Below, piece after piece: positions 2,818 through 9,830 of a DNA stretch of 10,593 nucleotides. Numbering within the stretch: position 1 is the first letter of the stretch; every line of letters begins with the position of its first letter. Location of the stretch: UHGV virus genome UHGV-0266384. One strand, written 5' to 3'. The notes below the pieces were generated by a model that saw only the letters and a program-made list of their open reading frames with translations, searched no databases and was not told where the DNA came from. Source of the stretch: a virus. The translations under genes and the position numbers were made by a program.

Positions 2818-2997
2818 TTATCCTTTGGGTTCTATGCCGCGTTGCTGTAATTCTTTGCGGATTATTCGCTTTATCCAGGCAGCAAGAGAATCATCGCCGT
2901 CCTGTTGTTGTGCCTTTTCCATCTTTTCCCGTAAGTCAGGATCTAAACGGAACTGGAACGGAGGATTACCACGCCTTTCGTTTTTGTGTGTTGACAC
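2818..2997 (-). CDS. Ribbon-helix-helix (Arc/CopG-like) small DNA-binding protein, 59 aa, candidate repressor of the divergent switch
   Basis: Hand translation of the minus strand from GTG (SD GAGGTG 8 nt upstream): MSTHKNERRGNPPFQFRLDPDLREKMEKAQQQDGDDSLAAWIKRIIRKELQQRGIEPKG. The pattern of a beta-strand with alternating hydrophobics (FQFRL), then helix, then Gly-containing turn, then helix is that of Arc-family RHH proteins. Missing from the ORF track only because it is under 60 aa. Confidence 0.55.
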   Translation of the reverse strand: MSTHKNERRGNPPFQFRLDPDLREKMEKAQQQDGDDSLAAWIKRIIRKELQQRGIEPKG

Positions 2998-3046
2998 GTT
3001 AATTACACCTCATGTAATGTATTTATGTGTAATGACACATTACACA
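2991..3046 (+). promoter_or_regulatory. Early rightward promoter with operator palindromes
   Basis: Perfect -35 TTGACA (2991-2996), 16-bp spacer, -10 TGTAAT (3013-3018). A 21-bp perfect palindrome TGTGTAATG-ACA-CATTACACA (3026-3046) lies just downstream, with a third TGTAATG half-site at 3013-3019 overlapping the -10. The -35 overlaps the start codon of the minus-strand RHH ORF. Confidence 0.6.
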
Positions 3047-3126
3047 CAATCAACACAAAAAGCAAAGCCCCGCACTGTAGGAGCAGTAACGGGGCTTCTA
3101 ACCAACAACGTAAACTAGGAGCCGTT

Positions 3127-3324
3127 ATGGTTGCCGTAAATCATATACCACACCTTGTACACACACAAACGGCCTTTGTGTGGCGTTTTCTGGCACTGAG
3201 TGCCGGAGAATCTCAAATCATCCACGTAACCGCCTGGACGGAACGCGAAGCGCGTAGCCGTTGCCCGTCCGGTTGTGTTGCTGTATTCGCCGCCCGTATT
3301 CGTCAGGGGTCACATCATGCGTAA
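3127..3324 (+). CDS. Icd-like small protein (host cell-division inhibitor family), 65 aa
   Basis: Strong SD AGGAG 6 nt upstream of ATG 3127 (the track's longer 3025 start lacks an SD). Motifs FVWRFLALS ... TEREAR ... FAARIRQG resemble the P1 Icd / P4-like Icd-like family as I recall it. A paralogous C-terminus is repeated in the next gene. Confidence 0.5.
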   Translation: MVAVNHIPHLVHTQTAFVWRFLALSAGESQIIHVTAWTEREARSRCPSGCVAVFAARIRQGSHHA

Positions 3325-3781
3325 AAACCGCTTGCAAAAAATTATCACGGGGCTGTATGCTTCCCCCGTCGCCCACATGGCGACCGGGTTTGACAGCCTG
3401 AATACATCTGGCGGACAGCCGCCCACATCCGATAAGCGGTTTTTTTGTGTCCGTAAACCTACCCATACCCGCATTATGGCGGGGCGTAACGGGGGAGCCT
3501 TTGTGCTCGCTGGTTTCCAGATGACCAGTCTGTCAACCCTGTTACGTCTCGCCACCATGTTTGACAGCGTAGTAGCGAGACTCCTTAAAATTCATCTGGG
3601 AGCCTTTCACATGGCTGTATCCGCACGCCCTTATTTTGTCTGGCGCTTTATGCAGTGCCTGACAGACAGTATTGCAATATTCACCGTTACCGCTGCCACT
3701 GAGCGCGAAGCACGTGCACAGCTGCCGCACGCACATCTTATTTTTGTCGCCCGTATTCGCCAGGGGGGGAGTCATGCATAA
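3317..3781 (+). CDS. Ash-like / Icd-like protein (154 aa), or alternatively only the C-terminal 56-aa Icd-like paralog starting at ATG 3611
   Basis: ATG 3317 overlaps the previous stop (ATGCGTAA) with SD AGGGG upstream. The C-terminal 56 aa (YFVWRFMQCL ... TEREARAQ ... FVARIRQGG) are paralogous to the gene at 3127-3324 and have their own SD (GGGAG) and ATG at 3611. The N-terminal 98 codons overlap a repeat-rich, hairpin-rich region, so their coding status is uncertain. Confidence 0.45.
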   Translation: MRKNRLQKIITGLYASPVAHMATGFDSLNTSGGQPPTSDKRFFCVRKPTHTRIMAGRNGGAFVLAGFQMTSLSTLLRLATMFDSVVARLLKIHLGAFHMAVSARPYFVWRFMQCLTDSIAIFTVTAATEREARAQLPHAHLIFVARIRQGGSHA

Positions 3782-4001
3782 AATACCCTTTGATGTTCTT
3801 GTTCATTCTGAAAACGCATTAATCCGCGCAAAGGAAATGGACGCATTACTACTTAAGTTAATTGATGTGCCGGAAAGTGGCGATGAATCTGATTCAATGA
3901 TGTTTTCTGCCGTGCGTACGCTATTAACGCCTGTTATTAATGAATTAAATACAGTGATGGCAATTCACGAGAATAATAAAGCGCAGCACACCGGAGAATA
4001 A
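3774..4001 (+). CDS. Hypothetical small acidic protein (75 aa)
   Basis: ATG 3774 overlaps the previous stop (ATGCATAA) and follows a strong SD GGGGGGGAG. MHKIPFDVLVHSENALIRAKEMDALLLKLIDVPESGDESDSMMF... No family recognised. The track's longer 3672 start is unlikely. Confidence 0.55.
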   Translation: MHKIPFDVLVHSENALIRAKEMDALLLKLIDVPESGDESDSMMFSAVRTLLTPVINELNTVMAIHENNKAQHTGE

Positions 4002-4006
4002 AAAAC

Positions 4007-4306
4007 ATGAAAAATAAAAATTCTGGCGTTACTGCCAGCGGCCCCGCTCGTCCTGAATTTATGAACGGCGATATTTACCGCGATAAATATGGCGGCATGG
4101 TAACGATTAAAGGCGTGGCAGAACGGCGCATCACCTACCGTCGTGAAGGCTACGAATATGATTGCGTGATGCCTGTTTATCAGTTTCGGCGTGATTTTTC
4201 TCTGGTACAGGCAGCGCCCCGCAGTAAACCAACCAGCAGGGAGAAAGCACGCGCCAATATTCAGGAAATAAAAAAGATGCTTAACGTATTCAGGGGTAAA
4301 AAATGA
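4007..4306 (+). CDS. Hypothetical small protein (99 aa), translationally coupled to the primase; possibly DUF4222-like
   Basis: SD GGAGA upstream of ATG 4007; the stop overlaps the primase start (ATGA). The motif YRDKYGGMVTIKGV...RRITYRREGYEYDCVMPVYQFRRDF reminds me of a small prophage DUF family, but I cannot confirm it. Confidence 0.55.
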   Translation: MKNKNSGVTASGPARPEFMNGDIYRDKYGGMVTIKGVAERRITYRREGYEYDCVMPVYQFRRDFSLVQAAPRSKPTSREKARANIQEIKKMLNVFRGKK

Positions 4307-6051
4307 AACTGGCACCGAACGTAAAAAAACAGCCACGCGGAATAAAACACAAAGACACAGAGGTAATTATTTTCGCGGGTAGTGATGCCTGGTCGCACGC
4401 GAAACAATGGCAGGAGCAGGATGGCCCCGCATCCGGCGATAATGTGCCGCCTGTGTGGCTTGGGCCAAATCAGCTTGCCGAACTTGATGCACTGAAAATT
4501 GTTCCGGATGGGAAAAAGCGCGTAAGGCTGTACCAGGCCGGAGAACTGGATTTGGTGGAGACCAAAAAGATTGGTCAGAAGCTGGCGGCGGCAGATATTC
4601 AGGACGCAAATTTTTACCCCGAAGGAATGCACGTCCAGAAGTGTGAAAACTGGCGGCGCTATCTGAATGCTGAGCGTGAAAATATTGCCGCAGGGCTTAC
4701 CATGCCGGAGCAGAAAAATACGCAACTGGCACAAATGGCAGACAGTGAGCGCGCGCAGCTGCTTGCCGAGCGCTTTGATGGCGTTTGTGTGCATCCGGAA
4801 AGTGAAATCGTTCACGTATGGCGCGGCGGGGTATGGTGTCCGGTCAGCACAATGGAACTTAGCCGCGAAATGGTGGCGATCTATTCAGAGCACAGGGCCA
4901 CTTTCAGCAAGCGCGTAATCAATAACGCCGTGGAGGCGTTAAAAGTTATTGCCGAACCAATGGGCGAGCCGTCCGGCGATTTGCTGCCGTTCGCCAATGG
5001 TGCGCTTGACCTGAAAACGGGGGAATTTTCCCCGCACACGCCGGAGAACTGGATCACCACGCACAACGGCATTGAGTACACGCCACCAGCACCAGGGGAG
5101 AATATCTGCGACAACGCGCCAAACTTTCATAAATGGCTTGAGCACGCAGCCGGAAAAGACCCGCGCAAGATGATGCGTATATGTGCCGCGCTGTACATGA
5201 TTATGGCGAACCGGTACGACTGGCAGATGTTTATTGAGGCCACCGGAGACGGCGGGAGCGGCAAAAGTACATTCACCCACATCGCCAGCCTTTTAGCGGG
5301 GAAACAAAACACGGTAAGCGCGGAAATGACATCGCTTGATGATGCTGGTGGGCGTGCGCAGGTTGTCGGGAGTCGTCTTATCGTCCTGGCAGACCAGCCG
5401 AAATATACAGGCGAAGGCACGGGCATCAAGAAAATCACGGGCGGCGACCCCGTGGAAATCAACCCGAAATATGAAAAGCGTTTCACTACGGTAATCAGGG
5501 CGGTGGTGCTGGCGACCAATAACAACCCGATGATATTCACCGAACGGGCCGGAGGCGTGTCACGTCGTCGGGTTATTTTCCGCTTCGACAATATCGTAAG
5601 CGAGGCAGAAAAAGACAGGGAGCTACCGGAAAAGATCGCGGCTGAAATCCCTGTCATTATCCGCCGCTTGCTGGCGAACTTTACCGACCCTGAGAAGGCA
5701 CGGGCTTTACTACTGGAACAGCGTGACGGTGATGAAGCTCTGGCAATAAAGCAACAGACGGATCCGGTTATTGAGTTTTGCCAGTTCCTGAATTTTCTGG
5801 AGGAAGCACGCGGCCTGATGATGGGCGGCGGTGGCGATTCAGTGAAGTACACAACCAGAAACAGCCTTTACCGCGTCTATCTGGCGTTTATGGCATACGC
5901 AGGCAGGAGCAAACCGCTAAACGTGGCTGAGTTCAGCAAGGCCATGAAGCCAGCGGCAAAAGTTTACGGACATGAATATATTACGCGGAGAGTTAAGGGA
6001 GTAACGCAGACCAACGCAATTACAACTGATGATTGTGACGCGTTTTTATAA
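4303..6051 (+). CDS. Primase-helicase, P4 alpha / D5-like SF3 helicase (the PICI pri-rep equivalent)
   Basis: 582 aa. SF3 helicase motifs are present: Walker A GDGGSGKST (about nt 5245-5271), motif B RLIVLAD, motif C VVLATNNNP. It is immediately followed by an iteron array, as expected for a replication initiator. Confidence 0.85.
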   Translation: MKLAPNVKKQPRGIKHKDTEVIIFAGSDAWSHAKQWQEQDGPASGDNVPPVWLGPNQLAELDALKIVPDGKKRVRLYQAGELDLVETKKIGQKLAAADIQDANFYPEGMHVQKCENWRRYLNAERENIAAGLTMPEQKNTQLAQMADSERAQLLAERFDGVCVHPESEIVHVWRGGVWCPVSTMELSREMVAIYSEHRATFSKRVINNAVEALKVIAEPMGEPSGDLLPFANGALDLKTGEFSPHTPENWITTHNGIEYTPPAPGENICDNAPNFHKWLEHAAGKDPRKMMRICAALYMIMANRYDWQMFIEATGDGGSGKSTFTHIASLLAGKQNTVSAEMTSLDDAGGRAQVVGSRLIVLADQPKYTGEGTGIKKITGGDPVEINPKYEKRFTTVIRAVVLATNNNPMIFTERAGGVSRRRVIFRFDNIVSEAEKDRELPEKIAAEIPVIIRRLLANFTDPEKARALLLEQRDGDEALAIKQQTDPVIEFCQFLNFLEEARGLMMGGGGDSVKYTTRNSLYRVYLAFMAYAGRSKPLNVAEFSKAMKPAAKVYGHEYITRRVKGVTQTNAITTDDCDAFL

Positions 6052-7311: not shown

Positions 7312-7334
7312 AGCCGGAGTAATCCGGCTTTTTT
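7312..7334 (+). terminator. Rho-independent terminator
   Basis: AGCCGGA-GTAA-TCCGGCT followed by TTTTT. Confidence 0.8.
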
Positions 7335-7340
7335 GTACCC

Positions 7341-9167: not shown

Positions 9168-9581
9168 ATGGCAACGAATGAAAGCATCATGGCGCTACCG
9201 CTGGCGAGTAAATTTAAAGCCGAAGCGCGGGCAATGGCTGACAGAGGGTTATCAACCTACGAGGCCGTATATCAACTCAACAAACTGGAAGAACAGGACA
9301 AGCCGCGCGCTGATGCGATTATGGCGCTTCATGAACATAACGACTATCAGCCGCTGTTACGTGCAATGGCAAACGTGCCATGTATTAGCGTCGATAATGC
9401 TCGTGAAATCCTGAACATGACCATAGAGCAGGAGCGCCCAAAGGTTGCACCAGAGCTTACCGCAGCCTTTGAAAACTTTATGGACATGCACAGCCCGCAA
9501 GCCGTATCAGCTGGCATGGCATACGATGGCAGAAACCAGGGCGATGACGGCGACATCGATCACATACTGAAAACCATCTGA
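9168..9581 (+). CDS. Hypothetical protein (137 aa), last gene before cos; possibly packaging- or head-related
   Basis: Strong SD GGGGGA upstream of the ATG; followed by a strong terminator. No family recognised and no clear match to lambda FI or FII. Confidence 0.6.
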   Translation: MATNESIMALPLASKFKAEARAMADRGLSTYEAVYQLNKLEEQDKPRADAIMALHEHNDYQPLLRAMANVPCISVDNAREILNMTIEQERPKVAPELTAAFENFMDMHSPQAVSAGMAYDGRNQGDDGDIDHILKTI

Positions 9582-9587
9582 GACAAG

Positions 9588-9611
9588 GCCGGAGAAATCC
9601 GGCTTTTTTTT
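9588..9611 (+). terminator. Rho-independent terminator of the capsid operon
   Basis: GCCGGA-GAAA-TCCGGC followed by eight T residues. Confidence 0.85.
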
Positions 9612-9830
9612 ACGGGTCCTTTCCGGCATATGGACCCGTTACGGGGCGGCGACCTCGCGCGTTTTCACTATTTATGAAAATTTTCCGGGATCCATGTCCG
9701 GTTTCTCTGCAAGTTAACCATATGAAAAATATAAAAACATGCTTTCTATGAACCGGACATGCGCAAAAAACAGACACTAAAACCGGACATCGTACCCGTT
9801 AACCGGAAGTGTGCAAAAATCACACGCATT
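9609..9830 (+). other. Lambda-type cos site, copy 1: cosQ-like, cosN, and cosB with R-like repeats
   Basis: TTACGGGTCCTTTCCGG ... GTTACGGGGCGGCGACCTCGCG ... GTTTTC(A)CTATTTATGAAAATTTTCCGG is near-identical to the lambda cos junction as I remember it. The 12-nt cohesive end GGGCGGCGACCT is at 9644-9655. Downstream there are three or four AACCGGACAT(G/C)-type repeats in both orientations (9691-9826), consistent with terminase small-subunit binding sites. Confidence 0.8.

Follow-up and report, generated by a model that had tools for sequence, protein, structure and literature searches.

Between two genes for Icd-like proteins in the virus genome UHGV-0266384 lies a segment crowded with repeats and hairpins that is also open in one reading frame, which raises the question of whether these bases encode part of a protein or act as RNA. 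An earlier note on this DNA had seen the two readings competing over positions 3317 to 3610 of the window (the whole stretch of 10,593 nucleotides that was analyzed) and had proposed an RNA switch of the seqA/seqB/seqC kind known from P4. We find the competition resolved in favor of RNA. Bases 3332 to 3610 very probably constitute an RNA-only immunity module of the P1 immI/P4 CI type, and its nearest relative by sequence is immI of P1 and P7 instead of P4. For P1, P7, and P4, the C4/CI RNA family with its targets and logic is textbook knowledge, and the family is curated in Rfam.

The C4 RNA and its targets

Searches with Rfam models, the check that the earlier note had named, assign the segment to this family. 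The C4 antisense RNA model (RF01695) matches positions 3472 to 3559 over its full length (model positions 1 to 87) with 72.6 bits against a gathering threshold of 45 (E value, 5e-13), and the c4-a1b1 model (RF03163) matches positions 3355 to 3404 with 46.8 bits, a marginal pass of its threshold of 46.7. With the same models, the CI region of P4 scored 74.9 bits (C4) and its seqA region scored 60.8 bits (isrK, RF01394). Because CI and seqA match these models at similar scores, the analogy with P4 is a true homology. In a BLAST comparison with phages, the 190 bases from 3380 to 3569 were 76 to 80% identical to immI of P1, P7, D6, and their kin (∼78% for P1). Alignment with the annotated P1 record, in which immI has the order a1 b1, c4, a2 b2, icd, gave base-for-base counterparts for the promoter P1c4/P51b, a1, b1, the c4 misc_RNA, a2, b2, and the icd start. 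The C4 RNA and the features at its downstream target are as follows:

3478 to 3556, plus strand: mature C4/CI-type antisense RNA of ∼79 nucleotides, its ends placed by homology to P1 C4
3517 to 3524: b' (CCAGATGA), in the C4 hairpin loop
3530 to 3536: a' (CTGTCAA), in the single-stranded junction of C4
3546 to 3602, plus strand: downstream target region, in which a hairpin (3546 to 3552 with 3575 to 3581) presents a2 (TTGACAG, 3561 to 3567)
3592 to 3599, plus strand: b2 (TCATCTGG), overlapping the Shine-Dalgarno sequence GGGAG (3598 to 3602) of icd-like-2
3611 to 3781, plus strand: icd-like-2, a real gene for 56 amino acids and the first under the proposed C4 control; its ATG aligns with the P1 icd start

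Folding bears out the RNA reading as well. The minimum-free-energy structure of C4 is the model structure, at −45.9 kcal/mol (z = −6.4), and no shuffled sequence was as stable. A long stem closes the RNA and encloses two hairpins, and an alignment of 13 sequences, P1 and P4 among them, has compensatory changes at 11 of the 23 pairs and one broken cell. C4 ends 3' in GCCACC(A), and the sequence shows an acceptor stem like that of a tRNA, with GCCACCA at its end.

The three repeats reported earlier in the order direct, inverted, direct are present in the window as GGGTTTGACAGCCTG at 3386 to 3400, CCAGTCTGTCAACCCTG at 3525 to 3541, and TGTTTGACAGCG at 3558 to 3569. They correspond to the a sites, and a' matches both a1 and a2. 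The a word, TTGACAG, has its only three copies in the 10.6-kb window at 3390 (plus), 3530 (minus), and 3561 (plus). Three copies against 1.1 expected is not significant (20 of 200 shuffles had at least three), so the evidence rests on their clustering within 178 nucleotides and on their plus, minus, plus order. What had been missed is a second triplet, b, which determines specificity and covers the ribosome-binding site. Its word, CATCTGG, lies at 3405 (plus), 3517 (minus), and 3593 (plus), again in plus, minus, plus order, with one further, unrelated copy at 880. The six sites interleave as a1 b1 … b' a' … a2 b2 inside 210 nucleotides. Bases 3512 to 3524 of C4 pair with 3592 to 3604 (b2 and the Shine-Dalgarno sequence) over 13 contiguous base pairs, giving a duplex of −23.9 kcal/mol. 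The positions of the target region correspond to a2/b2 of P1, where pairing of C4 is established to block icd translation.

The a and b words and the leader RNA

We compared 91 loci of the same anatomy, collected by two IMG/VR pattern scans (longer, gapped patterns on viral contigs) and completed with P1 and an Escherichia coli relative. They comprise 17 types of b' loop and two a' words (CTGTCAA and CTGCTAA). At every locus, a1 and a2 match a', and b' pairs over at least 7 nucleotides with b1 and at least 8 with b2. The three copies of each word always change together. The same b word is found with either a word, which implies continuing exchange under maintained function. When duplex energies were computed for all 17 × 17 combinations, each of the 17 loops had its cognate b2 as the best partner (mean, −13.0 versus −4.2 kcal/mol for noncognate pairs). 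No b type common to island-type and P1-type modules, which would be a sign of helper cross-talk, was found among the 91 loci.

Some matches lay further afield. On a single P1-sized IMG/VR contig (2703718869_000013; 97 kb), the C4 loop pattern matched three separate times (L151, L173, and L183), and L151 and L173 differ in b type (ACAAGTG and ACTAACG). A genome-wide scan with a 15-mer that includes a' (CCAGTCTGTCAACCC) yielded mostly chance matches across unrelated phyla among the matches listed, which also hold an Acinetobacter cluster (L011, L015, L017, L022, L026, and ∼20 others). Two Acinetobacter phages also appeared in the phage BLAST search, and the Acinetobacter loci may be genuine relatives of C4 that share the a word.

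Upstream of C4, the module contains the following promoter and leader features:

3332 to 3361, plus strand: predicted sigma-70 promoter (−35 element TTGCAA at 3332 to 3337, 18-nucleotide spacer, −10 element TATGCT at 3356 to 3361)
3368 to 3446, plus strand: leader RNA, homologue of P1 a1/b1, P4 SeqA, and Salmonella IsrK, by Rfam, folding, and covariation
3368 to 3384 and 3385 to 3400, plus strand: leader hairpins, the latter presenting a1 (TTGACAG, 3390 to 3396)
3405 to 3411, plus strand: b1 (CATCTGG)
3410 to 3414 with 3419 to 3423, plus strand: hairpin GGCGG/CCGCC, which competes with a stem AGCCGC/GCGGUU (3417 to 3422 with 3436 to 3441)
3440 to 3446, plus strand: run of seven U's, abutting the stem 3417 to 3422/3436 to 3441

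The predicted promoter aligns base for base with the annotated P1c4/P51b (TTGACC/TATAGT) and is conserved in 29 relatives, where the −35 element is TTGCAA and the −10 element TATGCT or TATTCT. Transcription probably starts at G3368, which opens the 5' hairpin and aligns with position 1 of the isrK model. The free leader folds with the 3410 to 3423 hairpin; when b1 was blocked in constrained folding, the minimum-free-energy structure shifted to the stem before the U run. Base 3410 is both the last base of b1 and the outer base of this hairpin, and the pair 3410:3423 covaries in relatives (G:C in 15, A:T in 12, and G:T in 1), which supports the hairpin and its mutual exclusion with b1 and is no proof of termination.

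Three foldbacks in or near the leader had been described before. The GGCGG/CCGCC hairpin is real and, at its outer pair, changes in a compensatory manner, although it occupies 3410 to 3414/3419 to 3423 and not 3411 to 3424. The ACGGGG/CCCCGT hairpin also exists, at 3347 to 3352/3364 to 3369 and not 3351 to 3373, but its changes in relatives are mostly uncompensated and comparative support is absent. The 11-bp inverted repeat (3323 to 3333/3434 to 3444) is exact. It was not taken into the mechanism, since it shows no compensatory change and is broken in one relative and weakened in 12, and its left arm overlaps the conserved −35 element and a duplicated gene start. It may still act in antitermination in read-through transcripts, because the entire leader is closed by it in the fold of 3317 to 3447.

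Taking words and leader jointly, we put forward tentatively, as a possibility short of probable, that C4 modules, in satellite islands of E. coli and in P1-like prophages alike, make up a combinatorial code of RNA addresses and that the leader contains a C4-operated antiterminator/terminator switch. The vocabulary of the code may comprise at least two words for a and at least 17 for b, each altered in all three copies whenever it changes. If so, each element would have a private, non-cross-reacting immunity, some islands would carry tandem orthogonal modules, and the 17 b types and two a types could serve directly as mutually orthogonal pairs of RNA and target. For the switch, base 3410, common to b1 and the 3410 to 3423 hairpin, covaries with its partner in each. 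The searchable literature, a partial collection, contained neither the leader switch nor a code of this breadth in satellites.

Proposed mechanism and rival readings

The mechanism proposed here involves the gene that precedes the module and the operon that follows icd-like-2:

3127 to 3324, plus strand: icd-like-1, an upstream paralogue of 65 amino acids, from which transcripts would read into the module
3774 to 4001, plus strand: open reading frame (ORF) for 75 amino acids, whose ATG at 3774 overlaps the icd-like-2 stop
4007 to 4306, plus strand: DUF4222 protein (Pfam)
4303 to 6051, plus strand: D5_N/P4-family primase-helicase (Pfam D5_N, DUF5906, and Pox_D5)

Both icd-like products match the Icd-like family NF033153 of NCBIfam, with 64.7 bits for icd-like-1 and 53.7 bits for icd-like-2 (residues 9 to 51). 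Pfam gave no match for either of them or for the long ORF at 3317 to 3781, so that NCBIfam was needed. The operon from 3774 to 6051 (plus strand) is tightly packed or overlapping, and the primase lies 700 nucleotides downstream of the module in the same orientation; it scores 106.8 bits with TIGR01613 (P4 family), just below the cutoff of 108.7.

We propose that a weak constitutive promoter (3332 to 3361) and read-through from icd-like-1 would feed one four-part transcript, consisting of a leader with a1/b1, a leaky intrinsic terminator (3440 to 3446), C4 (3478 to 3556), and a2/b2. The ∼79-nucleotide C4 would be cut out of this transcript; in P1, C4 is cut from its precursor by RNase P. In the mature RNA, b' (loop) and a' (junction) would pair with a2/b2 and block translation of icd-like-2, and translational coupling and polarity would spread the block to the downstream primase operon. 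The block should reach that operon because ATG 3774 overlaps the icd-like-2 stop and the later genes are packed or overlapping. At the leader, C4 bound to a1/b1 would open the 3410 to 3423 hairpin and let the stem and U run form, and transcription would stop before c4; by homology with P4 and IsrK, many transcripts would end at this U run. The replication genes would remain silent for as long as the RNA is neither titrated nor out-transcribed, with the b sequence setting a private specificity. The analysis shows the family membership, the structure, the three-way complementarity with its covariation, the overlap of b2 with the ribosome-binding site, and the noncoding character of 3317 to 3610. 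We infer the processing and the promoter start; we also infer the translational block and its polarity, for which P1 is the model, and a termination switch modeled on P4, IsrK, and the constrained folding.

Several observations weigh against this account. The isrK model covers the leader (3368 to 3446) over its full length (1 to 77) with 35.2 bits, a match at relaxed thresholds below the gathering value of 50, versus 52 to 65 bits, i.e., above 50, in relatives and P4. The predicted promoter agrees with the consensus at 8 of 12 positions, which is why a consensus scan was silent on it; that scan of the window for promoters and terminators recovered neither element of the module, for which homology and folding are the basis. 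With 6 bp (one of them G-U) around a 13-nucleotide loop, the stem of the terminator is weak. The output of the P1 system is the antirepressor gene ant, and no antirepressor family was found among the Pfam and NCBIfam matches of the downstream genes. Among 29 close relatives, 28 keep the frame from 3317 to 3781 open, so that translation through the module is conceivable. IsrK, which is homologous to SeqA, terminates at a leaky site and precedes a processed CI-like RNA, and in Gifsy-1 this homologous leader RNA activates rather than represses, which leaves the sign of leader regulation unsettled (PMC4825925).

The open frame is also what suggests that 3317 to 3781 is a genuine 154-amino-acid Icd-like protein with an N-terminal extension and that the repeats and hairpins are incidental. 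Its ATG at 3317 overlaps the icd-like-1 stop and has a G-rich stretch 8 nucleotides upstream, and PGAP calls the equivalent 465-nucleotide coding sequence in E. coli A34 and S1-CAM-02-A, with no RNA annotated there. (The loci in question, together with that of the P4 reference record discussed below, are L002, 6318 to 6782; L215, 10677 to 11141; and L214, 8168 to 8584.) The comparison of homologues speaks otherwise, yielding the reverse of the pattern that the earlier note had named as fatal to an RNA: the pairings covary, third positions show no excess variation, and no protein is conserved. Among the 29 close relatives, variable columns at codon positions 1, 2, and 3 number 25, 27, and 19 in the extension (3320 to 3610), whereas the true icd genes have a third-position excess (32, 33, and 52 in icd-like-1; 20, 18, and 33 in icd-like-2). 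Outside the a and b sites, the extension is 4 to 8 times more conserved than the flanking icd-like genes. Paired −1/+1 indels shift the frame for 21 or 107 nucleotides in 18 of the 29, and one relative has an uncompensated deletion. Distant relatives have stops 6 to 15 codons upstream of the icd ATG; P1, too, has stops in this frame, and its experimentally characterized icd begins directly after b2. The match to NF033153 spans just residues 107 to 149 of the 154, and Pfam finds nothing in the extension. Selection for an open frame across 3317 to 3610 was considered and rejected, as ∼77 to 82% of random b cores keep the frame open; eight open types are unremarkable (0.8^8, ∼0.17), and openness needs no selection. 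The 3' end of icd-like-1 and its stop/start overlap duplicate those of icd-like-2 (3286 to 3333 is a 75% copy of 3743 to 3790, where icd-like-2 joins the next gene), and ATG 3317 looks like a by-product of this duplication. The stretch from 3317 to 3610 is noncoding, and the protein reading, the least probable of all those weighed here, is essentially excluded.

Translation could also matter without a product. On the pattern reported for Gifsy-1, the leader RNA (3368 to 3446) would act in trans as an activator on the read-through transcript, opening a closed structure such that ribosomes start at ATG 3476 and pass through the C4 region into icd-like-2, the open frame serving their transit. The full-length isrK match and the above-threshold scores of relatives fit this scheme, as does the position of ATG 3476, in frame and exactly 135 nucleotides (45 codons) before ATG 3611, with the fusion kept in 19 distinct island-type sequences. 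In Gifsy-1, moreover, translation of orf45 is required for anrP expression, and IsrK binds the CI-like region in experiments (PMC4825925), which counts in its favor. We nevertheless judge the scheme unlikely. ATG 3476 has no Shine-Dalgarno sequence (CCCATACCCGCATTATG), and the fusion is lost in modules with an 8-nucleotide b' loop (stop 49 nucleotides before the icd ATG) and at locus L161 (stop after 8 codons). In the P1 sequence, read by eye, the frame stops inside b' after 14 codons. What all loci conserve is the separate Shine-Dalgarno sequence and ATG of icd-like-2, the site covered by b2. Less likely still is the idea of a module in decay, left over in a cryptic island and without any regulatory effect. 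The window is without the first isrK-C4 module that some relatives have upstream of icd-like-1, and the primase is frameshifted in the relative from strain A34. In the window itself, however, the primase and other ORFs are intact, and identical b types occur with both a types. A dead remnant is unlikely because all six sites match perfectly and nothing else in the region is as conserved as the module (mean pairwise difference, 0.02 to 0.05). The antisense-RNA module remains the reading we prefer, in which the stretch is a functional-looking switch and not the N-terminal two-thirds of a 154-amino-acid "Icd-like" protein, as it appears in RefSeq for the two relatives inspected.

The island and related systems

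Judged from a 97%-identical relative, the window is an 11-kb island beside tRNA-Pro(GGG), between yejM and yejO in E. coli. At its start lie the following two features:

196 to 272: tRNA-Pro(GGG)
473 to 1732: tyrosine integrase

No direct repeat of the tRNA end, which would mark attR, was found inside the window. The island genes include the integrase, a weak AlpA-like helix-turn-helix match, the two Icd-like genes, DUF4222, the D5_N/P4-family primase, a single-stranded DNA-binding protein, PerC, the lambda-type capsid protein E, and the decoration protein D. The island is a satellite resembling the phage-inducible chromosomal islands (PICI-like) and is not P4-like. DNA like window positions 3000 to 4000, which hold the module and both icd-like genes, occurs in 1,217 of 5,426 complete E. 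coli genomes. Recent satellite surveys treat Icd-like genes as accessory cargo and do not mention the RNA (PMC13612085). Recognition of the module provides a concrete handle on the regulation by which PICI-like islands keep their replication off.

In some relatives, icd-like-1 is preceded by a second complete isrK-plus-C4 module that uses different a' and b' words (L143, 9274 to 9459; L133, 10763 to 10951; L159, 2801 to 2989; and L205, 2642 to 2830), and from these words the two tandem RNA switches are apparently orthogonal. Where those relatives have this first module, the window has a promoter and an operator-like region. There, a perfect palindrome, TGTGTAATG-ACA-CATTACACA, at 3027 to 3047, comes after promoter-like elements TTGACA (2991 to 2996) and TAATGT (3015 to 3020), with more GTAATG/TTACAC copies nearby. 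The palindrome region sits between icd-like-1 and a divergent ORF for 59 amino acids (2818 to 2997, minus strand; weak YlcI/YnfO match), and positions 2991 to 3050 look like the main operator of the island. A GC-rich hairpin in the icd-like-1 leader (GCCCCG…CGGGGC, 3065 to 3099) was scored as an intrinsic terminator on the minus strand, where a T run adjoins it. Elsewhere in the window, near-identical terminator-like hairpins, GCCGGAG(T/A)AATCCGGC with a T run, stand at 7313 to 7338 (after PerC) and 9588 to 9613 (after the ORF at 9168 to 9581).

Relative to what is established for this RNA family, the locus adds a new b word and its placement in an island of the PICI-like type. Modest extensions come from how broad the a/b code is, from the tandem modules, and from the proposed switch. 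With immI of P1 and P7, the module shares the Rfam family, the order promoter-a1-b1-c4-a2-b2-icd, an identical a word (TTGACAG), a b2 at the ribosome-binding site of an Icd-like gene, and specificity that resides in b, as it does between P1 and P7. It differs from immI in its b word (CATCTGG here versus GTTAGTG in P1), in the second icd-like gene that precedes it, and in its residence in an 11-kb integrated island rather than a plasmid prophage. Furthermore, the gene translationally coupled to icd in P1 and P7 is ant, whereas here the 75-amino-acid ORF, DUF4222, and the primase-helicase follow.

The Gifsy-1 system (isrK–orf45/STnc1160–anrP) resembles the module in its two-hairpin leader, leaky terminator, processed CI-like RNA, and regulated gene (Hershko-Shalev et al. 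2016, PMC4825925), as well as in an ATG 45 codons upstream of that gene. By contrast, the window scores 35.2 bits with isrK (threshold, 50), has an icd-like gene downstream rather than an antirepressor, and fuses the 45-codon frame to icd-like-2 instead of ending it before the regulated gene.

The likeness to P4 extends to the RNA family, an integrase-bearing satellite, the position of the module upstream of a P4-family primase operon, and, as proposed here, the logic of premature termination, with seqA, CI, and seqC lying in the untranslated leader of the replication operon (in P4, the alpha operon). Even the annotation is similar, since the P4 reference record has a coding sequence, "cI gene product (AA 1-137)," over the CI RNA. 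Unlike the match to P1, there is no detectable nucleotide similarity to P4 outside the structure; the a and b sequences differ, and leader and C4 are separated by 26 nucleotides here versus ∼108 in P4. Of the P4 hallmarks sid, delta, psu, and epsilon, none is matched by an ORF of the window or annotated in the full island of the 97%-identical relative (tRNA-Pro to yejO). The module is therefore closer in sequence to P1 immI than to P4 and is P4-like in what is controlled.

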